From IMG/VR virus record IMGVR_UViG_3300011008_000008: a DNA stretch of 64,000 nucleotides; one strand, 5' to 3'. Both the position numbers and the translations under genes were made by a program. Under the pieces are notes generated by a model. It was given only the letters and a program-made list of their open reading frames with translations. It made no database searches and was not told where the DNA came from. Of this stretch, positions 15,151 to 46,160 are shown piece by piece; positions within the stretch are counted from its first letter, which is position 1, and each line of letters opens with the position of its first letter. This DNA comes from a virus (Duplodnaviria > Caudoviricetes).

Positions 15151-15167
15151 CGCTTTGACACTTACGA

Positions 15168-16438: not shown

Positions 16439-17049
16439 TGCCTCCTATCATTTTGCCTTTGCGTTGATTAAATTATAGCATGCCCTTCATGTATTGTCAA
16501 TATGTTTTTGCGTTATTTCCTTAAATTATTTTACTTCATTTTTAAATATACGTATTTTCTGGTTTTCTCCCCATAATCTATCCGTATTTAAAAATCTCCT
16601 TTTATTGCCCTGCTGTTTTTCTTCATATTTAAAAACATAAAAATGCCGACACCTATGGCATCGACACATCTTTCAATCATTTTCATCGTATATTTCCTGC
16701 CCTGTATTAATCACATATCCAGGCCCACAATTTGGACATTCCAAATCCTTCAACCATACACCCTCCGGATAGACACCAAGCCAACGCTCCATACACTTTA
16801 GGCAAACCACTTCCGAAACAATGTGCGGTTTCAGCTCATAGATATCAACTATCTCACCCATCTTAAATAATCCGCTCCAGCCATGTTACAATGCAAATGA
16901 TCATCGCCAAAGCTTCAAACGCGAACGCCAATGATTGCTTATGATTAAGTTCCATTTCGGTCAAGCTCAAATCATATACGTCCCATATAAAGATTCCAAA
17001 GCAAAAAATCAGCATGAACACTCTAAATACCATCGTGCATCATCCCCCA

Positions 17050-17394
17050 TCAGTAATACTTGATCCCAACCTTCAATCCAGATTCTCTTGCTATCTGGAT
17101 CATGTGCCTGGTTCCCCTGCTCTCGCCATCCCAGAACGCCAGCAGCGCGTTCGCGTACTTCGCCATCTCTGCATTGCGCAAATACCCTGCTCGTTTACCA
17201 TACCTGTCCCATTCCGCAGGAAAAACTCGCAAAGAATAACCTCTATCCTTCGCATACCTCTCCCCTAAAGCATCCGCGCCACGCGCACCGCCGCTGACGA
17301 TCTCTATATCATCGGTAATTTTGGACAGCATAAAATCAGCATATCTACACAGAAGATTATAATCTTCAAATGTGCGCGATCCCGCAATTATCAC
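17050..17394 (-). CDS. SLOG superfamily (DUF2493/YspA-like) protein
   Basis: IIAGSR, IVSGGARGADALGERYA, RNAEMA, AFWDGESRGT. Confidence 0.85.
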   Translation of the reverse strand: MIIAGSRTFEDYNLLCRYADFMLSKITDDIEIVSGGARGADALGERYAKDRGYSLRVFPAEWDRYGKRAGYLRNAEMAKYANALLAFWDGESRGTRHMIQIARESGLKVGIKYY

Positions 17395-17407
17395 CTTAAA
17401 AATACAA

Positions 17408-17980
17408 TCATTCCCCTTCGCTCCACGGCGTTTCCTTCATCTGCCTTGCCGATGGAATAGATGTCCAATAGCGCAAATCTCTGCGCCCGTTAATATATCC
17501 CTTGTGTATTGCCATCCAGCCAATGGGTCTATTGACGCTCTCGCAAAACGCAGGTAAACAACCATCTGTATCTAAAGCCGGATTGTTTTTGAAATCATCC
17601 TCGGTTATCAACCTCGGGCTGGATATTGCCGCCGCATATCTCGCGTAAGCCCATACCTCGTTGATCAGACTGGCCAAACCGTCACGGGTTCTATATCCAT
17701 CCCAATCTATAAGTATGTCGGCAATGTTTTGTAGATTCTCGGAAGCAGTCATACCTTCAAGCCATCTCTTTGTTTCATCTTCCAATTCAATCGGCTTGGG
17801 CCTTTCTATTTCAGGCTCCTGGTTCTGCGCTTTCAGCATTTCGATAACATCATCTACTTTGCATAGCATCTGTACTGTGATTCTCATTTCATCCATCGAA
17901 TGATTATGCACGGATTTTTTCATCCATGTTGCAACATCTTCCAGCCCATTAATTGTTTTCTCTCGCTCAGTCATTCCCAC
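17408..17980 (-). CDS. WRCW-motif paralogue family protein (divergent)
   Basis: SPRLIT...LRYWTSIPSARQMKETPW. Confidence 0.55.
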   Translation of the reverse strand: MGMTEREKTINGLEDVATWMKKSVHNHSMDEMRITVQMLCKVDDVIEMLKAQNQEPEIERPKPIELEDETKRWLEGMTASENLQNIADILIDWDGYRTRDGLASLINEVWAYARYAAAISSPRLITEDDFKNNPALDTDGCLPAFCESVNRPIGWMAIHKGYINGRRDLRYWTSIPSARQMKETPWSEGE

Positions 17981-18274
17981 GCCACCGCCTGTCCACAGTA
18001 TTTACAGAAAGATGTCAACGTCTTTCCTTCAATCTTTTTGCCGCATTTCGGGCATTTCCCGATCCACGGCACATTTGGATTAAGTACGTTATCATGTGCT
18101 TTGTGGACGTTTATGACAAGTTTTGGCTCCCGCGTTTTCAAGGCTTCAATTCCTTTCTGATATGCTTTTCTGATACGTCTTTCACATTCAGTTCTGGTCT
18201 GCTCTGTCTCTTTAGAATCATCATCCCACCTAACCTGTATTGAAGCCTGTAATTGAAGCCATTTAATCGCTTCT

Positions 18275-18718
18275 TCATTCGTCATTCCACTTTTCAACCT
18301 CCATCTGTTTATTTGTCGGGCGTGAAGTCCAACAACGCCAGTAGCGTCCATAATCCTCCATAGAAAGTACTGACTCATTATTACAGCCCCAGAAATGTAC
18401 CGCAAGCCCTTTTGATGCAGAGTCAAATTCTATGACCTCGCCATACCAGGACTTATTGTTGTATTGTGTTTCCACAAACACAACATTGCCAATTTGAAGC
18501 TCGTGGGCTTTAATAAGTCTCGGTTCCTGCACCTTCAGCAAATCAAAAGCATCTGCACATAATCTTTCCTTGTCACACGTAACCTCTCTGTAATCGGCTT
18601 CTTCATCTTCGTCAATGCTAATCAGATAAGGGCATTGATCACATGCGCCCAACCATTCTTCTTCAACACAACATTTCAAGCCTTGAAGAACCCTTGTAAG
18701 CTTTTCCGCATCTGTCAT
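18275..18718 (-). CDS. WRCW-motif paralogue family protein
   Basis: QEPRLI...YGRYWRCWTSRPTNKQMEVEKW. Confidence 0.65.
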   Translation of the reverse strand: MTDAEKLTRVLQGLKCCVEEEWLGACDQCPYLISIDEDEEADYREVTCDKERLCADAFDLLKVQEPRLIKAHELQIGNVVFVETQYNNKSWYGEVIEFDSASKGLAVHFWGCNNESVLSMEDYGRYWRCWTSRPTNKQMEVEKWNDE

Positions 18719-18821
18719 TAATCCTCACCGCTTTCTTTGTAGTATGAGCAATCGGAACAATCTTCTTCCGGATGAAACAACAACGGACATACATACCAGT
18801 CAGGTAATGTACAAATTCCTT

Positions 18822-19391
18822 CTACCACTTTTCCCACGGCGTTTCCTCCCACGGTATCTCCTCCATTTGCCTTTTCGTCGGGCGAGCTGTCCAGCATCGC
18901 CAATGATTCATATAGCCAGCTTTTGTGAAACTATTTGAATTTCCACGTCTATCAGTAAACCATACGTAAGTATCATCGACAAAGTGGAATAATCTGCATA
19001 CAGGATCGTTATCTCCGTTCTGAATATAGACATAATCTGATCGGTAAACTTCTTCCAGAGTCATTACTCTTGGAGCTTCCGGCTTTAAATAAACAGACGG
19101 TGCATGTTCAATTACTTCCGATTCAACAACGGATACACCGCCAAACGGATTGTCCCAGGTCGCCGGTTCAGTTAGATGGGAAAAATCAAGAAGGTAATCA
19201 CGACTTACTGCATCATCGCAAGGCTCTTGTGTTTGCAACAGATATAACGTGCTACCCAGCAAAACAGAATGACAATCTCTTTCCAGATTGTGATACGGGC
19301 ACGCGGCAACATTACATTGGATGATATCATCTCGTCCCAAACATTGTTGCAAACCATTTATAACCTTTTCCCGCTTCTCCTGTATTGTCAT
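18822..19391 (-). CDS. WRCW-motif paralogue family protein
   Basis: APRVMTLEEV...WRCWTARPTKRQMEEIPW; CDDAVSR module. Confidence 0.65.
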   Translation of the reverse strand: MTIQEKREKVINGLQQCLGRDDIIQCNVAACPYHNLERDCHSVLLGSTLYLLQTQEPCDDAVSRDYLLDFSHLTEPATWDNPFGGVSVVESEVIEHAPSVYLKPEAPRVMTLEEVYRSDYVYIQNGDNDPVCRLFHFVDDTYVWFTDRRGNSNSFTKAGYMNHWRCWTARPTKRQMEEIPWEETPWEKW

Positions 19392-19852
19392 TCCGCCGTC
19401 TCCTTTTCAACATCCGCATTCAAAACATTCAATCTGTCATCCTGCGCAAGCAAGCGCATGACTTTCAAGCTGTCGCACTGGATATAGCGATCCTTAATCA
19501 CCTGTAGATCTTCCTTGTTGGGTTTGAAATACTGTTTGCACAACTCAACCACATTGGCAATCGTCGCTTCGATATTATCCGCTTGGATATCCATTCCATA
19601 GACCGAGGCAATGGCTGTTCTATAGTCCTTCTTTGTTTTGCAATTTTCAAATTTTCTGCGTAGAATTTCGAGCACAAATGCGCCCTCTCCACATGATGGT
19701 TCAAGGAAAGTTTTTTCGGGTTGAAATATATCCGGGGCATGTTCTTCCAGCATGTTCAGCATATCATCTACAACCCATTTGGGCGTAAAAATTTCTGTCC
19801 CCGTTCTCTCCCTGCCTGAACTTGAATGCTCACCGGCATCATATATCGCCAT
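19388..19852 (-). CDS. Short N6-adenine MTase-like protein (SAM-binding half only)
   Basis: EIFTP, FLEPSCGEGAF, VYGMDI; no NPPY/DPPY motif. Confidence 0.7.
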   Translation of the reverse strand: MAIYDAGEHSSSGRERTGTEIFTPKWVVDDMLNMLEEHAPDIFQPEKTFLEPSCGEGAFVLEILRRKFENCKTKKDYRTAIASVYGMDIQADNIEATIANVVELCKQYFKPNKEDLQVIKDRYIQCDSLKVMRLLAQDDRLNVLNADVEKETAE

Positions 19853-19857
19853 TTATT

Positions 19858-20430
19858 TCACCGCGCCTTTTTCAGAAATGCTATATCATTATCAATCTTC
19901 CAAGGGTGTCTGATGTCTGATTCTTTTAGTTTTGTCCTTGCAGTAATTAGATTTGCGCATGCAGAATCATAATGTTGTTTACACAGTTTCTTCCCTGGCA
20001 CAGCCTTTTCTCCGCAACATACGCAAAATCCATCAATATGTACCCTTTTTACATACGTCCGCGCATAACGGCGCTTGTCTCTCGCTCTTTTCTTTTTGTG
20101 ACAGTTTTCACAAAGCGCGTGTTTTCCGTCTATTGGCTTGCCGCACTTTGGGCAAAGTCCCTTTTGTTTACGTTCTGCTTTCCGCTTTCTTCCCTCTGCA
20201 GCTATTTTGTCTGGATTATTCTTAGTCCATTGATCGTTATAATCAGCCCTTCGCTGCTGGCATTCCGGACACTGTACAAAACCTATTGCTGCATCCCGCT
20301 TCCCGCATGTGGTACAAATATGGTGCTCCCTACGCCACGCACGCACTTCTTTCCAGTATGCGTTTAGTCTCGCCTTGCGCTTCTCCTTATCCAGCGGCAT
20401 TATCTTTTTCCTCCGGGACTGCGTTTTCAT
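19858..20430 (-). CDS. Basic Cys-rich Zn-ribbon repeat protein
   Basis: Repeated CxxCG...CxxC units. Confidence 0.65.
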   Translation of the reverse strand: MKTQSRRKKIMPLDKEKRKARLNAYWKEVRAWRREHHICTTCGKRDAAIGFVQCPECQQRRADYNDQWTKNNPDKIAAEGRKRKAERKQKGLCPKCGKPIDGKHALCENCHKKKRARDKRRYARTYVKRVHIDGFCVCCGEKAVPGKKLCKQHYDSACANLITARTKLKESDIRHPWKIDNDIAFLKKAR

Positions 20431-21280: not shown

Positions 21281-21282
21281 AC

Positions 21283-24952: not shown

Positions 24953-25749
24953 GTTTTCATCCCTTTCTATGTCCTTTTGACAGATATATTATAGCTCCAG
25001 CAATTCGCATTGTCAATATCTTTTTGTCTTATTTAATAAAATTATTTTCTGGCATTTTTAAAAACATAACCGATCTGGAAATTAGTTGTTTTCAAATATG
25101 ATGAATTATTGCGCATAGAAAAGCTGCCGGAATGTTCCGACAGCTCTATAATCAGTACCGGCTTATCTCATTATCTGTTTCATCGTATACAAACTGCTGC
25201 ATCTCATGGTAAATGGCATTTACTCTCTCCTGGATAAGCAGTTTTGCCATATCTACAGCTTCATCAAAGTTCTCCGTATGAAGATCAATACCGTCTATAT
25301 TAAGCGGGTGGCAGGTTAAAAATAGCATATCCCCCAGGCCAACCAGCTTATGAATACAGACTCGCAGCTTGTTATCTGCCAAGTTGTAAATATCTCCGCG
25401 CTTGTTTACTGTCCACTTCATCGCTTTTACCCTCCACTTGATCATTATAACATCCGTATTATTGTTTTGCAATATTGATTATTCTATTATGCCACTTTCT
25501 CCACAGTCGCATTATCAAAATCAATCAACCGGGTATACGCCATCAGCCGCTTCATCAAATCAAGCGCCATATACTTATATTGAAACGCTATATTTCTCAC
25601 GTTCCCGTCGATATCAATCCTCAACATGTGCAAATTGTCCTTTTCTTCGTATTTTACATTAATATACTTCATTTTGCAATTCTCCGTTGTCTCAAAACCC
25701 TCTAAATAAGAGGGTTTTTCTGTCAATGAAATAGTCTTTTTATCGACGC

Positions 25750-26875: not shown

Positions 26876-28566
26876 TGTTTTTTAGCCTCCCCATTGACAT
26901 ATGCTTCCAACTCTATCCTGGCAATATCTTCAATGTTTTTATAGTTTGCAACCTTGAAAGTTCCATATTCATTATTTCCAAACAATAACATGTTTTGATT
27001 ATAACGATCACGACACATGAAACACTTGAAGCCATTCCCATCATAGAAAACCAAATCTCCGAATCTCTCCATGCTCACACTCTTTTCTCAATATTCAAAA
27101 ACAAAAACTATTTAGCAGCATAGTACACTTCTGCCGGAACATGATAAATCCAATCGCCACTTCTGACCAGCATGGCATCCATACCATAATACAGCTTCTT
27201 CATGCCATAGATACTCCCGCTTTTATGGAAGTTTGGGTATTGTGAAAGATTATATTTCTCTCCCTGCTTTTTGCTCATGTAACGCACCCTCACGCCATCA
27301 TCTCCCTTTTCATTTTCTTATACTCGTTATCCATTTCATCCAGATATTCAAGGTATTTCTGCCGATCTCTGAATACCTTCACCTTGCGTCCTCCAGTCCT
27401 GGCTTGCCGGATTGCATTCTCTGCATACTGTTCATCAATTATGGTTACGCTGCCGCTTTGATGGATGATATACACATCATTTTCCATATGCGTTCTCCTT
27501 AAAGTCTGCATTATCTATCATCAATACATTTTTGTCTTATTTATTCATTCAAAAAAATATCCTTGAATGACGGTTTGAGTTTCCTCACCACTTTGACCGT
27601 GCCTTTGATATAATTATCGTCATGAAGCGACGCAATATACTGACTGCCAACTTCAATTGCTTCTTCTCTATTCTTCGCCGTTGCCATAAATCGCTTTGTG
27701 CCATAGAAATAATGTCCAACTTCCATCAAATACTCGTGCATCTATTTCCCTCTCCCTTCCTTTTCTTCCAACGCATCCAACGCCATACGCAGCAGCTTGA
27801 TTTGCCCCGGCTCCATGTAGTGCGTTATTTCACAAGCCCTTAGAAAATAACGCATAGCATTGATCTGTTCGCCAATTGTCATTTCACTATAGTTTTTCAT
27901 GCCTAATCCCTCCAGTCATTCAATTATTTCTACGTTGTTCAACGCTGTCCAGTACACATTGCCGTCTGTGTCCTTGATACCGATTCTCACGCTCGTATAT
28001 ATTCCCCACGGATCGCCATATTTGCTATTGTCATATGATCCCATCCAGAAACATTCGCCAAATGTTCCATGCGGAACCTTGCGCCCCTTGACCACCCTGA
28101 CCATCTTGTGGTAAAACTTCTTGACATCATTGATTAAAGCCACCGCTTTATAATTTCCAGTCGAAGCCATATGAAACGCCATCTTGTCAAGCTGCTCAGT
28201 GCTGCACTTGCTCAATTCCTTCATGGTCATAGCTGCTTACCTCTCCATCCATCTTTAATGTCAAATACCAGGAAGTTGCAGTTTTCCATTCCATCGTGTT
28301 CCCATCAAGAGTCTGGCTTATATCGGAATGAATGGAAAACTTTACTCCGTTCAATTCGACTGTATCATTATCAATTTGACCGAAACCTTTATCAAGAAGA
28401 TGTTTCAAATATTCTTCCTTCATTGCCACGCCTCCATCCCATGACTGAAAATTTCCATGTCCTCTTGACAGTTATATATTACCACAGTTAACATGTATTG
28501 TCAATACTTTTCTGTCTTATTTTATATGATAATTTAACTTCGTTTTCAAATATCATATTTTCTTGT

Positions 28567-28884: not shown

Positions 28885-29310
28885 CTACTGCCCCTTGTTC
28901 ATATTGTCCGGGTTACTCGGCAATTCACGACACCACATCAAGAGCTTGATCAACTCCATGGCCTTTTCCCTCTCAAAGTCCTTGCGGTTCAGCTTCGCGT
29001 CGTAGAAATGCCAGATAGCATGTTTTCCCCTATTGTACTTAAACCCATCCGGCATCTCCGAATTAATGATCGTAGGATAATCCATCCTCAAACAAATGGC
29101 GGTGTTTGAACCTGGTTTGCCGGTGTAGTGTCCCTCGCAGCTTCCAGTCGTTACATACCCTTTTTCATTCAGGATTCTAACATGATCCTGTATTCGTTCG
29201 TCAATGTACAGCAATTCCCACGGCGGGAAATAATCACATGTACATTCGTACAGCTTGTGAAAACACTGAGGGCATACAAAATTCATGTACGCCGCCTTAC
29301 TTCTCCGCAT
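28885..29310 (-). CDS. Hypothetical protein with Zn-ribbon and LNEKGYVTTGSCEGH motif
   Basis: CPQC...C.C; SCEGH. Confidence 0.6.
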   Translation of the reverse strand: MRRSKAAYMNFVCPQCFHKLYECTCDYFPPWELLYIDERIQDHVRILNEKGYVTTGSCEGHYTGKPGSNTAICLRMDYPTIINSEMPDGFKYNRGKHAIWHFYDAKLNRKDFEREKAMELIKLLMWCRELPSNPDNMNKGQ

Positions 29311-29663: not shown

Positions 29664-30116
29664 CTAAACAATCCTCTGCTTATAGTCTGATTTCACATAC
29701 GATTCAGCCACCGCATCATAAAGATAGTTTACATCAATTCCATTCTCCTGGCAACCCCTTTGGATGATGTCAAAATAATTTTGATAGGGCGGTTCATAGC
29801 CTTTCCTGTCCTTCGCCATGACATAGGCGATGCACGATTCAACCCTGCCGTTTTCCAGCCAGGTCTCCACTTCCTCCTTGACATAATACCGAGGATAACC
29901 CTCGTACCTGTCAAGCATTTTCCAATCCTCCGGCGCAATTTCCCAGACTACGACGGGAACAGTATCTTCGACATTTTCAGTGGGAATAATATCAGCATGG
30001 ACATTAAACACCAACTTCCAGCCATACAACAGACCATTGCAAACAACCTTGGAATTGGGGCAACGATACGCCATCTGCTCCAGATTCATATTAGAACCAT
30101 ACGCAATATACTTCAT
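29664..30116 (-). CDS. Gamma-glutamylcyclotransferase (AIG2-like) family protein
   Basis: YIAYGSNMN..QM..RCP, LDRYEGYP; start re-set to MKYIAY after GGAGG. Confidence 0.85.
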   Translation of the reverse strand: MKYIAYGSNMNLEQMAYRCPNSKVVCNGLLYGWKLVFNVHADIIPTENVEDTVPVVVWEIAPEDWKMLDRYEGYPRYYVKEEVETWLENGRVESCIAYVMAKDRKGYEPPYQNYFDIIQRGCQENGIDVNYLYDAVAESYVKSDYKQRIV

Positions 30117-31458
30117 TTGATTTCCTCCATTCGCTTTAATATCCATAATGCACAACTTCCAGGTTACGCCATTCATCGGAACAAAACCCCGTCAACATTC
30201 CATACAACGGTATTATGCGACGATAATATTTATAATCATCATTTCTATTCTCGTCAATCCAACTGATAATATCCTTGGCACTGGCAGATTTGCAATGTTC
30301 CCCGTAGCAGTCTGTGTCGGTATCTTTGGTACATTCGTAACCATCCGGCGTTACTCCGCCACTAACGCCATACAGCTTATAGTCGATTTCCTTCTGAAAT
30401 ATTTTCTCAAATCCTGCTGGCATCCTCTCGCAATTAAATTCCGCAATGATTACTGGAATTACTTTCTTCCTGCTTAATGATCTGTTCGCATCCACAAAAT
30501 AAAGTCTGCTACAATACGCCATCCTTAACGCCCCTTTCTTTCAATGTCCTCTTGACAGTTATAATAATACCACATAATAAATGTGTTGTCAATAGGTTTT
30601 TGTCTTATTTATAAAATAAATTTAATCCTGTTTTTAAATATGGATTTTTCCTGTTCAACTACGATCTGCGAATCATTTTGCAAAATGAAGATTATCTGCT
30701 TTAAATTGAGCTAATTGTTTTTATTTTTGAAAACCGAATTTTCCTGACCGGCAGAACGGATTAACCGTCTGCCAATTCAAACCGCCATCTGTTCCGCTTT
30801 ACCACTATTTTGTTATCGGAATATCTGTTCGTTTTCGTGTTATATGCCCTCAAATCATTTGTAATAACGTAGTTTTCGGAGTAATAATACTTGTTGATCA
30901 TTCTCTCCAAATCTTCTTTGCTTCCGGCGCTGCAAATCAAATTTCCTTTCACGGCTTTTCCTCCTTCTCAACATTGCGGATTCTGTGCTAACCATTCCTG
31001 CTTCGGTAGGATGATCTGAATGCGTTTTTCAATGCTCAGCCCCTGTGGTGACGCCTCAAAGTCTGTAAAAATGTTTCTCGCCAACCGTTCGGATTCGTCG
31101 AAACTGTACCCCTTGCACTCAATCTTTTTGATTACGGCCATAAGATTGTGATAGGTCAATCTTTTCATCGCCATGTGCGCTCCCCCTTTTCATATCGCCT
31201 TAATTACACGCTCTCGCGCTACTTCCAGAACGTTCGTCATATTTCTGATTTCCTGCATACAATCGTCCAAACCAAATTCATGATAAAGGATTTGCGCACA
31301 CATCCTGGCGCGGCCATAATATTCAGAAGCGGTGCTTAGGCTTCTGATACATTCCTTTTCGTCAACCCATTTTCCAATATCCTGCCCCGCCATCCTAACC
31401 CAATGCAAGAATAAACCACGGTTATACTCATAAGATTTTATAATATTCTCCTGCATGT

Positions 31459-32280: not shown

Positions 32281-34486
32281 TATTATATCCTCCCTTTAAA
32301 ATGTTTCTATGTCCTTGTGACAGTTATATAATAACTCATCTTATATGTAATGTCAAGTAGTTTTTGTCTTATTTTATAAATTAATTTATTCTCATTTTTC
32401 AATATCACATTTTTTGACTTCCTTCTTGTTTTTGAAAATTGAGAATAATTGCAGTTCGTTTTTGAAAATCAGATTATTCTGCTATAGATCAACGCCATAC
32501 GGATTTACCGCATGGCGTGTGTCAAAGCCCCTATTCTATCTCATTCCAGTACAGCATTAGCAATAGACCAATGTGTTTTACCTCGTCAATAGACAATTGC
32601 CGCCCCGCATTATCGCCGCTTGTAAACTGTAATGCGTACTCTACCGGCTTTTCATCTACGTATTTTATCCTTATACCTATGCCAATTCTATTCATCAGCG
32701 CAGCCGCGCCGCCGTCTCTCAAATAGTTGATGATGTTCAGTGCGTTCTCGGATAGTCTTTCCTCTGTTAAGGCAACGCCGGAATAAAGCCGGTTCCACAG
32801 TTTCATATAGTCAATATAATTCGCTTTCATGCAAACACCCCCCCCATCCAGGCTCAAGCCATCGCTTCCAGTGCGAACATAAACGCTGCCGCTCCCCTGT
32901 CGCTGGAAAGTATGTCGCCACGGTATTCGGCAAACTCTCTCACAAACCTGGCGCTGTTCTCATTCTTGAACATATCATCAAAAGCGTCTACCGCTTCATG
33001 ATATCCAGCAACTTGATCATAATTCTGATACAGAAAATCATATTCCTCGTTGAACCGGTTCAGAAACTCGTGAATGTTAATCGCCTTGGCCATCTCGATG
33101 CCCTCCAATCAATTTAACTATGTCCTTGTGACAGTTATATTATATCTCCAGGTTTCTGTATTGTCAATAGGTTTTTGTATTGTTATTTAAATTATTTTCC
33201 AGCTTGTCAGATCGCAGCACGCCCAATATTCTCTCATTTTCAAAAACAAATCCATTATTCTCTTGTTTTTCAAAATTACGATTTCTTGCACGCAAAAAAA
33301 ACAAATATTGAAAAACAAGAATATAAAACAAAATGGCAACGCTTCCGCTGCCATTCCGTTTTCCATTATTCATATTTTTAGAAGCACGGTTTCCAGGCTC
33401 CCATTTCATCCAGGCCAACACGACAATCTTTCCTCTGTCTCGTCGCGTCAATTATTGCTTCCTGCTTGCGCCCCATTCGCTTGAATAGCAAATCCTTTGC
33501 CTTGATAATCTCGATGCCCGTTCGATCCTTAATCGCGTTCCTGAGCGTCCTATAATCCACATATGCAGGTAAACCGAGCACCATTTTCCCATTGATCACC
33601 AGCGTGCAGTAATAGCTCCCGTCAAAATCCCGAACGATATCAGCATACCATTTATTCATAATGCCCTCCTATTCTTCGATAGTAAAACTTTCCACGCACC
33701 ACTCGAAAACTTCCGACAAATAATCCTCGATCTCTTTATTGCTCATGTAGCCATCAATAATGATTCTTTCCGGCAAATCGGCGACTTCCTCTCCGTCTGT
33801 GTCCCACTTGATATTGGTCACTTTGATATAATTCGTCGGCTCTATTTTGACAATTTCCATGACGGGATAAACTATATTCCCATCCAGGATAATATTATGT
33901 CCATTTGTGCTAAAGCTTATCTTGCTGCATTCCAGCGTGTTTCCATTGGTAAAGTGTACGGTCATCTTGTTCATGCTCTTTTATCTCCCTTCTATGCATC
34001 ATCATTATTTATCTGTGATTCCATCGCAGTAAAGCCCGCCTGATTTTTTCGCACCCTGCATCAGTTCCAGGAATAAATGCATCAGACTTGCAAAATTTTC
34101 ATCCTCGACGTAATACCCTACGCCGAACCAGTCACCCTGTAGATCCTCGGCGTTGATTACCAAATCTCCATACTGTATATCCCCATCGGCAACGCCCTCA
34201 CTCAGCCATGACTCAAAAACTTCTTCATCGTTGACCTGTCGTGCAATGTACTCCATAGCCTTGACCATCTTAATGCGCTCAGCCCTGTTCATCATCTTCA
34301 TAACCTCCTATGCTCTCTCGCAATAGACCTTTGTGGTTGTGTCCTTGATATAGCATCCATCAGAAAACCATTCGCAGTTATCATCCATCCATTCTTCACG
34401 CGCTTCTTCCGTATAAAACGCCTTGATCACGTCGCCACTCAACCAGTCCGACACCAAATATAATCCCATATACACAGCCGCCCCTC

Positions 34487-36444: not shown

Positions 36445-36474
36445 ATCTAAAAACCTCCATTCTTTAATCTTGGC

Positions 36475-36882: not shown

Positions 36883-37629
36883 CTATGCTAATTTTAAATT
36901 AGTATCTGTTATGACTTTTGATGTGTCTATGCCGCAATTCTCGCACATGGCCACAGCGATTTGCAGGGCTTTGGGCCACTCTCCAGGCTTGATATAGTCC
37001 AGGATATTTCCAACACCTTGCGCCCTCGTATGACGCGATTTGGCGTTAATGTGACCGTGATAAAGCAGGTTCTTATAATAGACTTTCCAGGCTTGCGCAA
37101 AATCATTATCTCGGCATCCGGCGAATGTGCGCACCAGTCTAACAACGCTCTGCCGATAGTCCAGCGTCAAGGCATCCAGTGCCAACGCCTTATTGGTCTG
37201 CACCAGCGCGGCATTCCGTTCTTGTTCGTTTTTCAAAATCTCTAAAATCTGAATGATCGTTTCCGGCTGTCGCATCAGCTCGGTGATCTTCTCCGGGGTT
37301 ATGTAGGCTCCGTGCTTTCGGATTGATGGGATAACATCATGTGTTATCCAGCGTTTGAATGCTTTGGCTGCTGGCAGTTTGGATGATAACACCAGGCTAT
37401 ATAAACCGGACTCATTGATAATTGCTAAATTCTGTGCTCCTCCAAGGGTGTCGCATTTTGCTACTCCCCTGTCTTCCTCGTCTACACGCTTTGCCAACGC
37501 ATCGCGGCTGTTACTATATCCCAGAATATCCGTCACATCTTTTCCAACAAACCAGGGTTCACCATCAATTGCCAAGGTTCTGATTGTTCCAAATTCATCG
37601 TTTTTGAACATCGTGATTTTCTGTTCCAT
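36883..37629 (-). CDS. BRO-N family antirepressor-like protein
   Basis: FGTIRT..IDGEPWFVGKDV...INESGLYSLVLSSKLP.AK.FKRWIT..VIPSIRKHG. Confidence 0.9.
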   Translation of the reverse strand: MEQKITMFKNDEFGTIRTLAIDGEPWFVGKDVTDILGYSNSRDALAKRVDEEDRGVAKCDTLGGAQNLAIINESGLYSLVLSSKLPAAKAFKRWITHDVIPSIRKHGAYITPEKITELMRQPETIIQILEILKNEQERNAALVQTNKALALDALTLDYRQSVVRLVRTFAGCRDNDFAQAWKVYYKNLLYHGHINAKSRHTRAQGVGNILDYIKPGEWPKALQIAVAMCENCGIDTSKVITDTNLKLA

Positions 37630-39219: not shown

Positions 39220-39310
39220 ATGTAATGCATTTGTCTATTGACGCTTTCCACAAAATTACATTACATGTATTGTATGTTCAGTACATTACATGCAATGTAT
39301 TTAAAAACTA

Positions 39311-39339
39311 TTGACTAACTATTACATGTATGGTATAAT
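39311..39339 (+). promoter_or_regulatory. Sigma-A promoter with TTACATGTA site in the spacer
   Basis: TTGACT-17-TATAAT with TG extension. Confidence 0.75.
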
Positions 39340-39362
39340 TCATACGAAAGGATGTTGATTAT

Positions 39363-39557
39363 ATGCCAGTATCAGAAGCAAAGAAACGCGCAGACGCCAA
39401 ATATAGGGCGAATAAACGCAAGCAAATCCAGCTTGACTATTCTATAGAAGAATTTGAACGGATTAAGAACCATTGTGAATCCAAGCAAACACCAGTCGCC
39501 ACATGGTGTAAAAAGGCGATCAACGACGCCATTGACCGGGAAAGCAACGCCGACTGA
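39363..39557 (+). CDS. Ribbon-helix-helix/Arc-like DNA-binding protein
   Basis: VSEAKKRADAKY...QIQL...EEFERIK......ATWCKKAI; the only convincing plus-strand gene in the left arm. Confidence 0.7.
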   Translation: MPVSEAKKRADAKYRANKRKQIQLDYSIEEFERIKNHCESKQTPVATWCKKAINDAIDRESNAD

Positions 39558-42022
39558 TTTCCTTGGTTTTTCAATATCGAATTTTCTTGCGGTTCTGGGT
39601 TCAGCTTTATCAGATTTTCAAAAACCACGATCTGTATAGACTACAATCTCTTATTTTTCAAAATAAGGATTTTTTGCTAAAGCGCCAGGATTACCCGGCG
39701 TTTTTCCATATGTATTAATGAAACTGGTATCTCCGCTTGTTGTGGGTCTGGTTGTAAATCTTCTCCCGCGCTCGCATGATGCTGTCGATCAGCGCTTCAA
39801 CGATTGTCGCTCCGGTCAGTATAAAAATTATTGACATTAAAAACCCTCCATTTCAAAACTCGTTAAGCTGTCGTTCTTCAACATAAATGTATTTCTCCAT
39901 ATCCTCGTCGGTATACTCATGATCTCGCTGGATTGCACGCAGCATGTTTTCCAGATTTTCCGCGTCACAAACGCAAATCAGTCTCAAGCTGTCCCTTGAC
40001 TTCCACTCGTCGCAATCGAAAATAACAAAAACCTTCATCTGTGTTCGCTCCCTTCTTCAAATCGTCCGTTGTTCAGCAGCCACGGCCAGGAAAGTAATCA
40101 CACTCCCATACCTCGTTAAGGTTGATTTCCTCCACGTTGATATAGTCGCGCATTTCCTCGTCGGTAAATCCGCAACGCGCTCGCACAGCGTGCAGCATGT
40201 TTACCAGGTGTTCAGAGTCGCAAAATCCAAGCGTCCGTTCACTGTTATTCGCTACATAATGCGAATAGTAAATCCGATAGAGTTTCAAAAGCAAAGCCTC
40301 CTATAAAAAGTTTCTGTGTCCTCTTGACAGTTATTATTATATACTTTTTTGTCTTATTTGTCAATGGATTTTAATTATAATTCTTTGACTTATTTATTGT
40401 TTGAATTAGTCATCTGTACATGAATCAAACAGTTTTTAGAAATTGCATTTTCCAGGTTCAGCCCGTCAGAAAATCCAATATTGGAAAACATGATTCTGGC
40501 GCGTGAATGATCTATGGTTTTCAAATATCAGGATTTTAAAACCCTCTAATTTAGGATGTTTTTGTTTTCAAAAATCCGATAAAACTGTAATTTCATTGCC
40601 AGTTTTCCGGAATTTTCAAAAACCTGAGTATTTTCCAATCGTTTTGAAATATGGCGATTTTCTGCAATATTTCCAGCACGATCATTCATTTTTCAAAATA
40701 GATTTTTCCTGTACAGTTTTCCTTGGTGTTTCAAAATCCAAATTTTCTGTCACCCGCCCGCATAAAAAACAGGATTCGGAAAACTCCAAATCCTGCCAGG
40801 CCGGTAACGTCATTTATTCCAGTATTCTAAATTCCTCAATGTCTCCATTGTCGATCAGGTTTCTGCAATAGTTCCGTATATAATCCTGCATCAGGTAAAC
40901 GTCCTTCAGGTTGTTGTCCTTCATATAGCGCAACAGGTTCAGCGCCATCACGATCTCGCCCTCGCTAAATCCCTCCCGGTCTTCAAGGTTTCCTTTGTGG
41001 TCATAGGATTCCACAAAAATTTCCCAGCCCTTGCGCCCGATTTCGATATAACCGCCATTGTTTACTTCAATACGCATCATTTTAAAACCCTCCATTCTCC
41101 GTCAGCATTTCCAAGTAAATCTTATTGGCCAGCTTGTCAACGTCCACATGCTTTCCTTCTTCGCGCTCGCGCCTTGCAATGTCCAGCGCCAGGTTTACCG
41201 CGTCAGCCATTTTCCAATCCATCTTAAATCCTCCCTTGATCAGTCGTTGCCATGCTCGCGCATAAATTTCTCGATATCCGCGCCGGTATTCCACAATCCG
41301 TAATGATCCCGTACCCAATTCTCTACGTCAGCGCTCTCTCCCAGCTCGTCAAGATGAAAAATCCACCTTTCGCCATAGTCAGCCATCAGTTCACAGAATT
41401 TCTTAATGCAGCGTTTCTTGTCGCGCTCGAAAATCTCAAAATCACACTTCAACATGTCGGTTATCCTCACTTTCAAAAAAGTAACTATGTTTGCTTGACA
41501 GTTACTATTATACTCATCCTAATCCATTTGTCAATAGGTTTCTGAAAAAAGTTTTGATATTATTTTCTCCTATTTTTAGAAATTCTTCTTTTCTGTTCGC
41601 CAGGAACAAACGTTTTGGAATATAGGGATTTTCCGACAGCTCCCAGGTTTTCCAGGTGTTTTGAAATATCCGGTTTTCTTGCAGCCAGAAACCCGTTTTT
41701 TTTTGAAAATGGACTTTTCCTGCGCGGCAGCATCAAAAAGCGTTTGTTTTTGAAAATCCAGATTTTCTGCGCGACAAAAAAAGAAGGTTATGAAAAACCA
41801 TAACCCTCTTGCGCTGTCTCATCTCAGGCCGCTTTGCTCGCCTTTTTCCAAATCCTGTAAAACTCATTGCTCACGACTGCAAAACCTCCGTCAACCCGAA
41901 TGACGGTTTCTCCGGCGTTCCTTGCCTTGTTCGCTTCCCTCTTGGTCTCGTAGGTGATCAGATTCGACAGCGCCATGGTTTTATCCTCCCAACGTCAATA
42001 TGTTTTTGTCTTATTTCCTATG

Positions 42023-42361
42023 TTAAATCAAAGAGATCAGCTTGTTCAGGTTAAACCGATTTCCCGCTTCAAGCACGTTTTCCTTGACGCTCTTAGCGAA
42101 GACCCAGCCGTTCTTGGTTCCGTCCTTCTTGAACACGGATATCTTTTCCAGGTATTCTCCCCTGCCGTCGTAGTACTTCATATAGCACACCCGGCGCTCC
42201 GTGATCGTCGTTTCATCCTCTCCGATCTGCTTGATGAATGCGGGATAGTCATAGCCATACGCGGGATTGTGCAGGTAATTGGCCACATCAAACTTGTAAC
42301 CCTCCGGCAGCTCCATCTTGATCAGCTTCCTAATGTAATCCGGTTTCATGTTACGCGCCAT
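42023..42361 (-). CDS. Hypothetical protein
   Basis: AAGGAGG RBS; own promoter cassette. Confidence 0.6.
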   Translation of the reverse strand: MARNMKPDYIRKLIKMELPEGYKFDVANYLHNPAYGYDYPAFIKQIGEDETTITERRVCYMKYYDGRGEYLEKISVFKKDGTKNGWVFAKSVKENVLEAGNRFNLNKLISLI

Positions 42362-42778
42362 TGTTGTAACCTCCTTAAAAGTATCTATGTCCTCTTGACA
42401 GTTACTATTATACTCATCTTTTCCTTCTTGTCAATACCTTTTTCAAAATTTTTTGATATTATTTATTCCGTGATTTTCCAGGTACATCAGCAGCGAATCA
42501 GGTTTTTAGATTTTCAAATTTTCTGCACACACCAGATCAGGCAGCAGCGCCAGGTCTCCCGCGAATTTCCGTTTTTAAATATCCGAATTTTCTGCGCGTC
42601 CAGATCGGCAGGAATGCCACGCGCAACAATGCATCGTTTTTTGAAAATCCATATTTTCTGTATCTGCTCCGGATCATCAGCGCAATAAATCCGAATTTTC
42701 AAAAACAAATATCTATTGACGCCCAGGCCAAAAGAAAAAAGCAACCCGTTTACAGATTGCTATTTTTCCACCAGCTCA

Positions 42779-43171
42779 TTAAAGGATCAGCACGCAGTTA
42801 CCGACGTTTGTCTTTTTCCCGTCCTCGAATCTGCAATAATCCGCAACCCAACGTTGATAGCGATCATATACCGGGTAAACCTTAACGACTTTTCCGACGT
42901 AACCACGCGGAATGTTCCGTCCCTTAACCACCATCACGCGCTCCCCAGGCTGGATTATTCCATGCTTGCGATTGTAGGCCCGCAGCGCGTCCGCGTCAAT
43001 GCTGGCGTTATACCAGTAATCGCAATCCCTGCTGCAGTCTCCATAATCGTAATCCCTAACCACAATATTTTCCTCGTCGCCGGTCAGGATGTTGTAAAGA
43101 GTCGCTATTACAAAAGTTCCGCCATTTTGCGCAATTTTCCGCCATCCATTGGAATAAACCAGGTTTTCCAC
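42779..43171 (-). CDS. Hypothetical protein with KOW/SH3-like VVKGRNIPRG motif
   Basis: Motif shared with 27916-28230 (VVKGRKVPHG). Confidence 0.55.
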   Translation of the reverse strand: MENLVYSNGWRKIAQNGGTFVIATLYNILTGDEENIVVRDYDYGDCSRDCDYWYNASIDADALRAYNRKHGIIQPGERVMVVKGRNIPRGYVGKVVKVYPVYDRYQRWVADYCRFEDGKKTNVGNCVLIL

Positions 43172-43754
43172 GTTCAGCCCTCCCCTATTAATAGATTTTC
43201 TTCAATTCACGCTTTAAGCGCCTTTTCAGAATCGCGTCAATTACAATGTCAGTGATCAGCAGCCAAACACAAACGAACACCATGCCCCAAACCATCCAAA
43301 TGACCCAATCCATCTTCAAATCCTCCTTAAAAGTAACTATGTCCTCTTGACAGTCACATAATAACTCCTCTTTTCTGTTTTGTCAATACCTTTTTGTCTT
43401 ATTTTTTGAATTTTCCTAAGAATATTTTTTGTTTTCCGATATTGGATTTTCTATTAGCACGCTAATCATTTTTCCTTATTTTGAAAAATTCCAAATAATT
43501 GTACGCTGTATTTTCCGTTTTTAAATATCCAAATTTTCTGCAATGGGCTATTTTTGAAAATGAGTTTTTCCTAATGAGATTTGATTTTTAAATATTAGAT
43601 TTTCCTGTTTACCGGGTTTTCCAATATGAGATTTTACAGCATCGCCGCATCCAATTTTCCGCAATTTTGAAAAACATATATTTCGATTTTCCACCAGGCC
43701 AAAGAAAATCCCGGCAAACTTTACAGCCTGCCGGGTTATGTATCAAATTTTCTA

Positions 43755-44120
43755 TTAGTCCTCGTCGCTGTATTCGATATCCACAAGATCAAATTCCTGC
43801 GTAGTCATTTTGTACAGAACAGACTCTTGATTGAAACGTTCACGAAATGCGCGGATCATGGGAATAATTTCCCGGCGCTCAACACCTGCAATCTCAATTC
43901 TTATTGACGGTTCCTTAACTACCGTACCGTCTTCGTGGCGGTAGATTCCGAAAACGCCTTCAGTGAACAGGGTAGCACAAAAGCCACGGTTACAAATCTC
44001 ATCTTCGATAATTCGCAGGTAATCGGCTTTTGTGATTTCCTGCTTTTTCGTCTCTTGATCAAACATCCCTATTGTGATGATGTGCTCATTGTAGATTTTC
44101 ATGGTGTGTGCTCCTCTCAT
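43755..44120 (-). CDS. Putative SAM lyase-like / DUF3574-like protein
   Basis: GIYRHEDGTVVKEPSI and FNQESVLYK resemble T3 SAMase GCYRE...EEKTV / EQDCVLVYK. Confidence 0.5.
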   Translation of the reverse strand: MRGAHTMKIYNEHIITIGMFDQETKKQEITKADYLRIIEDEICNRGFCATLFTEGVFGIYRHEDGTVVKEPSIRIEIAGVERREIIPMIRAFRERFNQESVLYKMTTQEFDLVDIEYSDED

Positions 44121-44492
44121 TTCGTCGTCGTTACTATGTCCTCTTGACAGTTACTATTATACAGCATGTGATAGGGTTTGTCAATACTTTTTTGCATTAT
44201 TTTATAAATTATTTTTTGCCGGGTTTGAATGCAGAATCACCAGCAACAGAACAGCCATAACAGCGAATTGATGTTTTTAAATATCACGATTTTTTGAAAC
44301 CATAGAACAGAAAAGCGCATATTTAAAAATGCCACTTTGCAAACAGTCGTTTTTAAATATACGGATTTGTTGCGCATGCCCAAACAGAAAACCGGCGTTT
44401 TTGAAAATTAGGATTATTTGCGCGGGCGATCCTGTCATTTTTCAAAACGCAAAAAAAGACAGGGTTTTCACCCTGCCTGTTATCGGTTTGGA

Positions 44493-45332
44493 TTAGAGCA
44501 TATCCGCGTACTTGTGAAACTGCACAACAATCTTTTTCGCGGCAACGCTGGCCTTGTGCTTGCGGTATTCGGTAGCATTGCTATAACGCTTAGTGTCGAA
44601 GTCGTTGTCATTGAAATGGGCGACGAAGTTATTAACAACAGCTTCAGCAGCAGCCCGGCAGAATTTCACAGCGGCCATGTACTGTTTAGCGTTCTCAAAC
44701 TTGACGATCCGGAACTCCAGGGTGTTATCATGCTGGGTGTTGATAAAGTTGGTGTGCTCAGTCGGGGAAACGTTGTTGTTAATAGGCCGCGCCCAATGTC
44801 CGAAATCGCGCCCGAACAGCTTCCGAACCTTTTCCGGGTTAGCTTGCATTTCATCCGACAGGGCGACAAACAGAGAATGATAGAATCGGCGAATATATCC
44901 CATGGTGACGGCGTTGATCATGGTACGGTGTCCGACGTGGGTATGAGTCCCGCAATCGTCGTTGATCTCCAGCTCACCAGCCTGCATCAGGCGTTCAATG
45001 GTGACGGACTGCTTAGAAATAGCGTTCAAGCCCTTGAAAATGGGGGACTTGTACTCAACATCGACGGTGCAATCAGAGGTAGGAATGTAACCATTCAGCA
45101 GGATCTCAGCGCGGGACTTCGGCGTGCTATAGGACGTTTCAAGCTCGATCCCGAAGGTCCAAGGGTTAACCTTATCAGTGCCGAAGGTAGAGTCATTCTC
45201 ATGGCTATAACCATACAGCCGGTTAGCATGAAACGCGCACATATAAGCGGAGCGACCACCGCGCCTATAGGCGTCAACCTTGACAGTGCCAATGTCGGAG
45301 CACTCGGAGCAGCAGCAAATGGGAGTAGACAT
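44493..45332 (-). CDS. Amidoligase (COOH-NH2 ligase) family protein
   Basis: TFGIELET, SDCT..VEYKSP, CGTHTHVG, TLEFR. Confidence 0.85.
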   Translation of the reverse strand: MSTPICCCSECSDIGTVKVDAYRRGGRSAYMCAFHANRLYGYSHENDSTFGTDKVNPWTFGIELETSYSTPKSRAEILLNGYIPTSDCTVDVEYKSPIFKGLNAISKQSVTIERLMQAGELEINDDCGTHTHVGHRTMINAVTMGYIRRFYHSLFVALSDEMQANPEKVRKLFGRDFGHWARPINNNVSPTEHTNFINTQHDNTLEFRIVKFENAKQYMAAVKFCRAAAEAVVNNFVAHFNDNDFDTKRYSNATEYRKHKASVAAKKIVVQFHKYADML

Positions 45333-46160
45333 TAAGAAAACCTCACTTTCAAAATCGTTACTGTGTCGGCAACATTGTTACCCGGTCGATGGCAATAATA
45401 TACCACGGTCAAATGGGTTTGTCAATACTTTTTTGCATTATTTTTTAAAATAAATTTTTTGTGGCGTGGCCTTATATAGAAGCAATTGATTTTTAGAAAT
45501 GGGAAAAATGTGGGAAATAGGGGAAATATGAGTATTTATCATGGATTGTGATTGATTTATTAGATTTATTTATAATTGCCTGGTGTACAGTCTCAAATGC
45601 CGAAAAATCAAATTTTGGTTTTTGAAAATGGGATTATTTTGTATTCCAATTTTCGACTCCATCACCGGATGTATTGATACAGTATAGGCCATACACCTAT
45701 ACCAGTTTGAAGTCTATATTTTGATATTATGTAGACTTGACCTAATTTAGAGTGATTTATATAGGGGGATAGGTTTACATTATAGGTTTATATACCAGGT
45801 TAGTAAAAGGAAGAAGGTGTTCCACTTCCCTCTGCTCTCAAAAATTCCCGCCATATCCCCATTTTCAATAAAACAAGTTCACCCAATTTTTCGCCACCAT
45901 AATCCTCTAAATAAGAAGTCTACCGAATGTCGTTTTTAAAAATCGCAAAAAGCTCTAAATTCGCTGATTCTTACATCTGCCCGAATAATTCATTTTTGAA
46001 ATTTACCTCCCGAAAAATTCCTCTAAACAAGAGTGTTTTTTAAATCCGGATTCGATCTACCGAAAATTGCAAAACGACGATTAAATTGTCGCAAGAATTT
46101 TTCGGAAATCTATTCCTCTAAATTACAGTGTTTTGATTGAGAAAAATGACAATAAAACAA

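Follow-up and report, generated by a model that had tools for sequence, protein, structure and literature searches.

The early arm and its intergenic repeat

The window analysed here, a stretch of 64,000 nucleotides, belongs to a virus genome that is complete at 151.6 kb (151,571 bp; G000) and of the SPbeta/c-st type, marked as such by its YonO-like RNA polymerase, MrpR-like protein and HU; it comes from a large phage of gut or rumen origin that has not been cultured. The phage group, which has kinship with SPbeta, c-st and the Enterocloster phages, is probably temperate, given its tyrosine recombinase, MrpR-like protein and MazF block and the provirus label of two relatives. The early arm is hypervariable, almost none of its ~110 ORFs being common to nine relatives; an intergenic unit is common nonetheless.

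Read on the minus (transcribed) strand, this unit is 25 bp long, nCAR-AAAA-W-Tnn-AATTTT-n-AAAAA-Y, and contains three A/T tracts. It is asymmetric, with near-invariant G/C positions and near-invariant C/Y edges, and in a cross-phage logo of 424 units C occupies position 2 in 96% and Y position 25 in 98%, while the A/T tracts are invariant. The first-pass annotation had described a degenerate repeat of ~24 bp; the repeat is real, but its length is 25 bp, it is best read on the minus strand, and the 5' half of the motif proposed there (GTTTTTRAAWAT) is a near-palindromic core. Searched as a 24-mer with up to three mismatches it gave 27 matches, against 0.07 expected from dinucleotide shuffles, all between 16538 and 45641 and 24 of the 27 on one strand, as had been claimed of its copy number and predominant orientation. 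Nearly all positions reported earlier were regained within 1-2 bp (16538, 30630, 30723, 32458, 33265, 39566, 40641, 41699, 41746, 42502, 42571, 42637, 43517, 44273, 44349, 44397 and 45618), together with the inverted copy near 40464.

A fixed position weight matrix (PWM; seeded from 18 sites, threshold at least 14 bits) found 43 matches in the 151,571 bp of the genome, where about one was expected (first-order Markov simulations gave 0-2). Thirty-seven lie between 16000 and 46200, 32 of these in the same orientation. Early-arm intergenic DNA (6,969 bp, 64% AT) holds 26 matches, or 3.7 per kb, against a single match, or 0.1 per kb, in the remaining intergenic DNA (10,460 bp, 62% AT), and Markov models of orders 1, 3 and 5 fitted to the intergenic sequence itself produced 0.08-0.58. 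Counted in 5-kb bins moving off the strand switch, the matches number 16, 9, 5, 4 and 1, bearing out the peak reported there, and in all motif-bearing phages the units grow denser toward the gap at the strand switch. The unit is enriched over the Markov models and non-uniformly distributed, and the original claim stands on both counts.

Arrays lie between terminators and early promoters

Direct reading together with scans gave a cassette order of intrinsic terminator, array of one to five units, near-consensus sigma-A-type promoter and leader box, and the relative L030 has the same layout. The units sit in untranscribed spacers of the early arm, at -73 to about -450 relative to the promoters, not over -35, -10 or +1 and not inside transcription units. 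All the arrays that follow, from high to low coordinates, are on the minus strand.

Array 1 (45440-45642) combines a strong unit at 45618-45642 (PWM score 26.6) with a weak one at 45440 (11.7), downstream of which a promoter at 45425-45397 (TTGACA-17-TATATT with TG) drives the first early gene, an amidoligase-like one. Array 2 (44273-44421; units 44273, 44349 and 44397) is flanked by a terminator at 44478-44457 and a promoter at 44184-44156. In array 3 (43431-43700), between a terminator at 43735-43710 and a promoter at 43386-43358, the scored units 43517, 43550, 43584 and 43616 are spaced by ~33 bp and accompanied by degenerate copies, and array 4 (42502-42706), with its terminator at 42761-42740 and promoter at 42434-42407, has units 42502, 42571 and 42637 plus an inverted one at 42682. 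The five units of array 5 (41572-41770; 41572, 41612, 41658, 41699 and 41746) follow one another at 40-47 bp between a terminator at 41810-41781 and a promoter at 41534-41507. Array 6 (40432-40750; terminator 40797-40768, promoter 40364-40336) contains the scored units 40432, 40517, 40641, 40688 and 40726 as well as weaker or inverted copies. Array 7 (39566-39677), with units 39566 and 39653, an inverted unit at 39601 and a promoter downstream at 39237-39208, adjoins the 3' end of a plus-strand RHH-like gene.

Scattered units follow on the same strand between 37600 and 37980, at 37600 (over the first codons of a Bro-N gene), 37644 (inverted) and 37956. Array 8 (33265-33316) consists of unit 33265 and the inverted 33292, past a terminator at 33362-33325 and upstream of a promoter at 33167-33139, and array 9 (32394-32482) of units 32394, 32428 and 32458, spaced by 30-34 bp, with its promoter at 32356-32328. 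Units 30630, 30675 and 30723 make up array 10 (30630-30747; spacing 45-48 bp), whose promoter (30592-30564) drives an operon with the gamma-glutamyl cyclotransferase (GGCT) gene and the gene for a 141-aa protein; a single unit (28542-28566, PWM score 19.3) lies downstream of this operon. Weak units at 25040-25112 precede a promoter at 25016-24988, an isolated strong unit (19635-19659, PWM score 25.3) falls within the ORF at 19388-19852, and array 11 (16538-16650) pairs unit 16538 (27 bits) with weaker copies upstream of the promoter (16500-16472) of the MrpR-like, recombinase-fold gene.

In four cassettes of this genome (arrays 5, 9, 10 and 11) 37 bp separate the proximal unit from the -35 element; the distance varies across phages, being 20 bp elsewhere. 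Between units a register of 47-48 bp is preferred (39 of 153 unique same-orientation pairs), followed by 57-58 and 29-30 bp; the spacers, 44 sequences in all, are unrelated, and no helical phase could be shown either between unit and promoter or between units. Units face the downstream promoter in a ratio of 28:2 in this phage, of 155:46 over ten contigs and of ~50:50 in one relative. The early promoters carry a separate +1 palindrome, which seems suited to a repressor and looks a more obvious repressor operator than the units do. Phages that retain the unit differ in their leader box, so these two are independent elements. The promoter cassettes in G000 are visibly duplicated, and the strand-switch gap has its own, different repeat set.

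A word kept in divergent phages, and the genes that track it

The unit occurs at the equivalent genomic place in about a dozen related, uncultured phage contigs (G001-G005, G011-G015, L179 and L188), with up to ~20 copies per promoter in one relative, whereas four complete relatives (G006, G007, G009 and G010) and the cultured Enterocloster phages, in which it is absent, give 0-2 matches. Its arrays cut across the core-gene phylogeny, the core of G000 being ~74% identical to that of motif-less phages and ~63% to that of motif-bearing ones. Between divergent phages the unit is nearly unchanged, while the spacers are not conserved. A 2.4-Mb Ruminococcus MAG includes a motif-bearing 150-kb contig, a host assignment that comes from binning alone; outside that contig the MAG has just one unit-like site, giving no sign of a host regulon that uses the 25-bp word.

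In whole-genome presence profiles of the 151-kb genome the arrays were tracked by three genes alone, all enzyme-like and all on the minus strand: the Amidoligase_2-like first early gene (44493-45332; Pfam PF12224, E 7e-9), the GGCT gene (29664-30176; GGACT/AIG2-like, Pfam PF06094, E 8e-13, phrog_2520) and the gene for the 141-aa Zn-ribbon protein (P0001; 28885-29310). The last is present in 8/8 adequately complete motif-bearing genomes and 0/9 motif-less ones; it has an S-C-E-G-H motif, a sub-threshold Pfam TYW3 match and fold matches of Z 6.5-7.5 to TYW3-like chains, of which even Z 7.5 is borderline, a level common for chance. No phage DNA-binding protein co-occurred or co-varied with the unit in these profiles across relatives. 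HU and an MrpR-like protein, both named earlier as candidates for binding tests, are found in all relatives, with and without the motif; the MrpR-like proteins are 42-53% identical in phages of both kinds and ~25% identical in the motif-bearing G013-G015. The RHH-like gene occurs in G000 alone. CodY boxes, DnaA boxes and known RNAs were not supported as the identity of the unit.

Proposed docking sites and competing explanations

The units exist, are strongly enriched, asymmetric and confined to the early arm, are conserved across phages and follow a 47-48 bp register. We tentatively read them as sites where a pre-existing factor, probably from the host, docks cooperatively to act on early promoters. 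A sequence-specific DNA-binding factor would dock on the 25-bp units in the immediate-early spacers, neighbouring bound molecules would interact, and the resulting nucleoprotein array would set the activity of the adjacent early promoters. The factor would be present at the moment of infection, and might be a host protein, the transcription apparatus of the host or a partner of that apparatus. A pre-existing factor is favoured because neither co-occurrence nor co-variation with the unit was seen for any phage DNA-binding protein, because the unit hardly varies and because its A-tract/T-tract/A-tract layout resembles an UP element. Recruitment or activation at time zero is likewise favoured over silencing, since the early promoters already have the separate +1 palindrome. 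As for UP-likeness, 42% of the units lie, at a constant offset, within three mismatches of the UP-element consensus AAAWWTWTTTTNNNAAA (PMC2412878), compared with 7% of shuffled ones; promoter 42434 has a further copy of the unit core at about -50 to -39. Against the UP reading, UP elements do not feature the most conserved bases, C2 and Y25, and they occupy -59 to -38, whereas the units are found from -73 outward. The docking interpretation has also to reckon with related phages whose equally strong promoters do without arrays, with the single unit-like site in the rest of the Ruminococcus MAG, and with the variable distance from proximal unit to -35 and the lack of helical phase.

Known systems share parts of this arrangement. 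The stoperators of Cluster A mycobacteriophages (repressor sites of L5 and Bxb1) are likewise dozens of asymmetric, phage-specific intergenic sites, mostly oriented with transcription (PMC6550527), but they are single 13-bp sites in both genome arms, mostly inside transcription units, that block elongation and co-vary in sequence with each phage's repressor; the units here are 25 bp long, arrayed in register within terminator-to-promoter gaps of one arm, and have no cognate or co-varying protein that we could find. SPBRE, bound by the SPbeta master repressor MrpR, comes from the same broad phage assemblage and is also repeated at early-gene promoters (PMC10516654), but its motif is 15 bp long and present singly, at about 9-10 promoter regions, whereas up to five copies stand at a promoter here and their presence is independent of the MrpR-like protein. 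UP elements, the sites of the RNA polymerase alpha-CTD, share the tract order and, at one phage promoter, the position of the unit core, but they occur once per promoter, while our units are repeated and have their first two tracts 3 bp farther apart. The PeSL cassettes of T4-type phages resemble the early arm in their hyperplastic region of small, mostly unique ORFs and their repeated terminator and early-promoter module (PMC2839356, PMC4122927), but are without multi-copy site arrays between the two. F sopC comprises twelve 43-bp repeats, and pSM19035 has omega-binding heptad arrays. Both, like our putative sites, are regular repeats with one binding site each, upstream of promoters; they are confined, however, to one or a few loci and have ParA/ParB- or RHH-type partners, whereas this genome has no ParA, ParB or TubZ, and its sole RHH-like gene is unique to this phage.

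A less probable but still serious alternative is that the units form operator arrays for a phage-encoded regulator, whose cooperative binding would silence the whole early arm, either in the lysogen or at a late stage of infection. The stoperator and SPBRE precedents, the probably temperate character of the group (recombinase block, provirus-labelled relatives), the unit 37 bp upstream of the MrpR-like gene promoter, the absence of this phage-specific unit from the putative host chromosome and the distribution of the 141-aa Zn-ribbon protein all fit it. It sits poorly, however, with units placed past terminators and upstream of promoters, with an MrpR-like identity pattern independent of the motif and no other protein co-varying with the unit, with tracking proteins that look like enzymes (amidoligase, GGCT, TYW3-like fold) and with the +1 palindrome as the more obvious operator. 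Improbable in our estimation is a role as recombination linkers, in which the units and the common promoter and terminator would supply short homologies for swapping early cassettes and protein binding would be secondary: the hypervariable arm with its shared unit, the match to PeSLs (PMC4122927, PMC2839356), the incongruence with the core phylogeny and the cassette duplication within G000 speak for it, but homology needs no near-invariant 25-bp word amid unrelated spacers, and exchange requires no 47-48 bp register and no arrays that reach ~20 copies.

The first-pass annotation had inferred a distributed, polar protein-loading array. The generic idea fits a unit that is asymmetric, kept across divergent phages and set in register; the proposals of phased curvature, a centromere and a polar DNA-entry signal fail. 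A genome-end array, whether it resembles a centromere, signals packaging or DNA entry or coats the DNA that enters first, is slightly less probable still than recombination linkers, even though density climbs toward the strand-switch gap, the counterpart of this gap is where SPbeta-like phages start packaging (10.1101/2021.11.22.469490) and five Enterocloster phage records start 240-840 bp upstream of the YonO-like gene. The complete genome has no ParB_N, ParA-type (AAA_31, CbiA) or tubulin/TubZ gene, the arrays occupy at least 13 separate loci over 30 kb, orientation varies between phages although DNA entry would need strict polarity, arrays are missing from close relatives that share the packaging genes, and the gap has a different repeat set. 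TYW3-type enzymes act on modified bases, and the arrays might serve the enzyme trio (amidoligase-like, GGCT, TYW3-like), for example as recognition or loading sites for site-directed nucleic-acid modification. These are the sole genes tracking the arrays across an incongruent core phylogeny, and three units precede the operon holding two of them; but all three lie in the array-bearing arm, so that linked co-transfer would suffice to account for the association, DNA binding by the trio is without support, the TYW3-like match is borderline, and modification targets are normally short and genome-wide rather than spaced arrays, which makes this very unlikely. Early promoters of Bacillus phages are stimulated by upstream curved DNA, and each unit has three A/T tracts, but intrinsically curved or easily melted DNA acting upstream of promoters with no protein is the least probable explanation of all. 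The phased A-tract curvature suggested earlier is contradicted by a Fourier power at 10-11 bp of 0.4-0.6, below the random ~1; the A-tracts within a unit, at a distance of ~16 bp (1.5 turns), would bend the DNA in opposing directions; conserved C/Y positions and asymmetry are unnecessary for curvature; and other intergenic DNA of equal AT content is without the unit.

Docking of a probably host-supplied factor stays our preferred, if tentative, reading; the temperate look of the phage group suggests that a silencing role would suit it as well as an activating one. The 25-bp word itself, shared with a scattered minority of related phages or more, is previously undescribed.

A 25-bp oriented unit is concentrated in the early arm

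The first-pass annotation, made from the sequence alone, had proposed that copies of a degenerate 24-mer fill the early intergenic spacers of the phage under study (G000), and on both enrichment and distribution the proposal held. The 24-mer has 27 matches vs 0.07 expected. In intergenic DNA of equal AT content, the motif reaches 3.7 copies per kb within the early arm but 0.1 per kb outside it. On the transcribed strand the unit has the sequence GCAGAAAAT-N4-ATWTTYAAAAAC, and the logo obtained from 424 units, nCAR-AAAA-W-Tnn-AATTTT-n-AAAAA-Y, is asymmetric, with a C at position 2 in 96% of them. Copies were counted with a fixed PWM built from 18 seeds; iterative refinement drifted to a palindromic 12-mer core, over-calling sites. 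With this matrix 43 copies are found genome-wide, 37 of them in 16000-46200 of the window (32/37 co-oriented), compared with 0-2 in Markov simulations, and when Markov models of order 5 or lower were trained on this intergenic DNA, they yielded less than one match. Unit density drops with distance from the strand switch. An Rfam search had no matching family, and TRF missed the arrays. Two high-scoring units lie in coding DNA, one at 37600-37624, in the first codons of a Bro-N family gene (MEQKITMFKN...), and one at 19635-19659, within the ORF 19388-19852.

Among same-orientation neighbours the commonest spacing is 47-48 bp, seen in 39 of 153 unique pairs, followed by 57-58 and 29-30 bp. The sequences of the 44 spacers of the 47-48 bp class are unrelated, so it is the register itself that is constrained. 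No single helical period was found among the units, and phase-locking did not hold up robustly when pairs of the 47-48 bp class were left out. As for the shared orientation noted in the first pass, co-orientation with the downstream promoter holds in G000 (28:2) and over ten contigs (155:46), but not in the related genome G002, where it is about 50:50. Phased A-tract curvature, one of the explanations offered there, does not fit: Fourier power at 10-11 bp is 0.38-0.57, and the dominant spacings of the A/T tracts are 15-16, 32 and 46-48 bp. Since the tracts are out of phase at 10-11 bp, the curvature model was removed. The sequence statistics point to sequence-specific docking of a protein, with interaction between neighbours.

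Arrays lie between terminators and promoters

Direct reading and scans gave the same cassette order along the − strand: gene end, intrinsic terminator, array, A/T-rich promoter-upstream box, promoter (TTGACA-N16/17-TATAAT), +1 palindrome (ACTGTCAAGAGGACATAG), Shine-Dalgarno sequence and next gene. Arrays of 1-5 units are present at 13 of 19 strong promoters, with about 40 units per genome. Each array begins 10-35 nt past the terminator hairpin. Between the end of the proximal unit and the -35 there are exactly 37 bp in four cassettes, a distance that varies in other phages. Because the units follow terminators and precede the next promoters, the arrays sit in DNA shielded from transcription.

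On the − strand, the +1 palindrome recurs at some 13 promoters in 15187-44184, together with a box, AATAAGACAAAAA, that lies upstream at about -52 to -40. The leader box of the related locus L030 differs (GATAACAAAAACACAAC) and the unit is kept, which indicates that unit and leader box are independent elements. Because the leader box varies in this way between the two phages, it is phage-specific, and as an operator for the MrpR-like repressor it is the better candidate. The only + strand gene in the array zone, at 39363-39557, encodes a 64-aa RHH-like protein (phrog_13890) and has its own sigma-A promoter at 39311-39339.

The phage and the strand switch

The window corresponds to 87572-151571, reverse strand, of a 151,571-bp IMG/VR virus record rated complete, and the ends of this record overlap by 99 bp, as expected from a circular assembly. 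Genes in 1-46100 of the window are on the − strand and are mainly small ORFs, and from 46800 the + strand encodes a 923-aa polymerase-family protein, an exonuclease, HU, terminase and portal. Encoded beside the strand switch, the 923-aa protein (47208-49979, +) is YonO-like and, like YonO of SPbeta, has a match to the RdRP/two-barrel polymerase family (PF05183); its probable role is transcription of the + strand late arm. Its cultured kin are in Clostridium phage c-st and Enterocloster bolteae phages, with the SPbeta group more distant. The block 13296-16438 (−), kept in essentially all relatives, encodes a 330-aa recombinase, a 134-aa MazF/PemK toxin and a 315-aa protein with a Phage_integrase domain, and is probably the lysogeny module. 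From this recombinase/MazF/MrpR-like block, the provirus label carried by two relatives and the polymerase kinship, G000 can be placed among the SPbeta/c-st-like phages of Clostridia in gut or rumen samples and is probably temperate.

The strand-switch gap itself (45430-46800) has a separate set of repeats, comprising AT-rich 20-23-bp iterons (46457-46556) and five copies of CCTCTAAAT, together with an inverted repeat of 21 nt (46334-46354 / 46382-46402) and a hairpin of 14 nt (46161-46204), both perfect. The gap is a probable pac and/or origin region, as judged by analogy to SPbeta and to where Enterocloster phage records start. The equivalent strand-switch region of the related loci L020, L023 and L042 has six DnaA boxes (AGTTATCCACAAT) and (AT)n tracts, a cluster that G000 does not have.

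Arrays are conserved in some relatives and cut across the core phylogeny

Using the polymerase as the anchor, we fetched 43 related loci. The unit occupies the equivalent place in L030, L033/L034, L040, L041 and L046 and is absent from the other fetched loci. The 10 kb upstream of the anchor hold 27-40 matches in four motif-bearing loci and 8 in L040, with at most one downstream. Motif-bearing whole genomes have 36-55 copies, clustered in the 5-25 kb by the strand switch, and four complete motif-less genomes have 0-2. A consensus-pattern search retrieved more motif-bearing viral contigs and two phage-like contigs within MAGs, and the unit is near-identical across 13 contigs. Neither the G000-type unit nor the leader box turned up in exact searches of viral contigs, the DNA of the region had no match in the GenBank phage collection, and the cultured Enterocloster phages PMBT24 and CB473P3 are without arrays. 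The largest array seen lies at 4540-5500 of L041 (genome G003), where about 1 kb of noncoding DNA holds about 20 units, mostly 46-47 bp apart, with a single promoter downstream.

Three genes, but no DNA-binding protein, track the arrays

When whole-genome presence/absence profiles were compared at two stringencies, the only genes that tracked the arrays were those for an Amidoligase_2-like protein (44493-45332), a gamma-glutamyl cyclotransferase (29664-30176) and a 141-aa Zn-ribbon protein (28885-29310), all three on the − strand, the last being present in 8/8 adequately complete motif-bearing genomes vs 0/9 motif-less ones. The core genes of G000 are about 74% identical to those of motif-less phages vs about 63% to those of motif-bearing phages, so the distribution of the arrays and of these three genes conflicts with the core phylogeny. 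As they share one arm, linkage alone could explain their co-occurrence. The three may form one accessory enzyme pathway for peptide, metabolite or base modification.

The 141-aa protein looks like an enzyme, not a regulator. Its model (pLDDT 80) has TYW3-like chains as best matches in a wide structural alignment, at a borderline Z of 6.5-7.5; TYW3 is also its only recurring Pfam match, below threshold, and an S-C-E-G-H motif is invariant. A DNA-binding fold had no support, since Foldseek gave nothing significant (weak MotA-CTD rows at a TM of about 0.2) and the wide aligner placed MotA CTD at Z 4.2. Its look-alikes in the Atlas are viral hypotheticals, and it has no match among GenBank phages.

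Other candidate binders fared no better. A co-variation screen of 91 conserved ORFs found none that separates motif-bearing from motif-less phages. The MrpR-like protein (315 aa, 15491-16438; Phage_integrase domain, E 4e-9) occurs in every relative, motif-bearing or not, with 42-53% identity, falling to only about 25% in the motif-bearing genomes G013-G015. HU is likewise in all relatives (35-50% identity) regardless of motif, the RHH-like 64-aa protein is unique to G000, with no homologue in any relative, and no sigma factor gene was found in G000. The centromere suggested in the first pass found no partner: the complete genome has no cognate NTPase or centromere-binding protein for a parS-, sopC- or tubC-type site among the ParB_N, AAA_31, CbiA and Tubulin families, in a search whose controls were positive. 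A host regulon was rejected too, as 15 of 16 matches in a Ruminococcus MAG, the putative host, fall on a phage-like contig, and a scan of bacterial genomes gave mostly single chance matches. Known boxes did not exceed expectation, either for CodY (AATTTTCWGAAAATT; 7 vs 9.0 expected for 15-bp boxes at up to three mismatches) or for DnaA boxes/origin iterons (TTATCCACA; 16 matches vs 19.4 expected, unclustered in G000).

What may dock on the arrays

The arrays are a new form of a known class, the dispersed arrays of phage cis-regulatory sites, and neither the unit nor arrays like these are described in the literature and annotated phages that we searched. Dispersed, oriented arrays can govern entire phage genomes; to our knowledge, the known ones (stoperators, SPBRE and P1 C1 operators) each consist of single sites and have an identified phage repressor. 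The main rival to the reading we prefer is that a phage-encoded repressor binds the units with stoperator- or SPBRE-like logic (PMC6550527, PMC10516654). Like the unit, the stoperators of Cluster A mycobacteriophages are asymmetric and predominantly co-oriented (PMC6550527), and G000, like SPbeta, encodes a predicted recombinase-fold MrpR-like protein. Stoperators, however, lie inside transcription units and away from promoters, where the bound repressor stops elongation, whereas the units come after terminators and before promoters; and stoperator sequence co-varies with the phage's own repressor, whereas the unit is near-constant and has no co-occurring or co-varying DNA-binding protein. SPBRE is a single 15-bp element per regulated promoter region, with some 9-10 per genome, as opposed to 25-bp units at 1-5 per promoter and some 40 per genome, and the comparative evidence argues against the unit being the site that the MrpR-like protein recognises. 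A role in cassette exchange, as in PeSL (PMC4122927), may also apply and is compatible with either a host factor or a repressor. The composite terminator and early promoter flanking variable small ORFs are also present in G000; the locus pairs compared for cassette breakpoints were at least 99.8% identical or else too distant.

We favour the reading that a pre-existing cellular factor, either a host protein or RNA polymerase (alone or with a partner), would dock on the units and have a positive or organising role at promoters that must fire first. It is favoured because the unit is near-invariant despite almost no common early genes, because no phage DNA-binding protein accompanies it, and because it flanks the first-firing promoters. 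The UP element, the alpha-CTD site with the consensus AAAWWTWTTTTNNNAAA (PMC2412878), has a similar tract layout: 14 of 33 units (42%; the median for units is 4 mismatches) match it with at most three mismatches vs 7% of shuffles, the offset being constant, and the unit core occupies the UP position of promoter 42434. An UP element nevertheless lies at about -59 to -38, abutting the -35, whereas G000 units end at least 37 bp upstream of the -35, and the unit has conserved bases that the UP consensus does not. A bolder reading, which we think improbable, is that arrays and the three tracking genes are one mobile early-arm module of an undescribed kind, horizontally exchanged among otherwise different SPbeta/c-st-like phages and acting either as a UP-like, multi-copy 'antenna' that captures host RNA polymerase for the infecting phage at time zero or as spaced loading sites for site-directed nucleic-acid modification.

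What sets these arrays apart is a longer unit, a regular spacing and a location in insulated spacers ahead of the strongest early promoters, with no recognisable phage-encoded partner. Among large uncultured phages of gut and rumen they are a handy marker of a mosaic early-arm type. A phage protein as the binder would define a new regulator family; if a host factor or RNA polymerase itself docks on them, the arrays would represent a novel means by which a phage controls its first minutes of transcription, and would offer portable upstream control elements for Clostridia.
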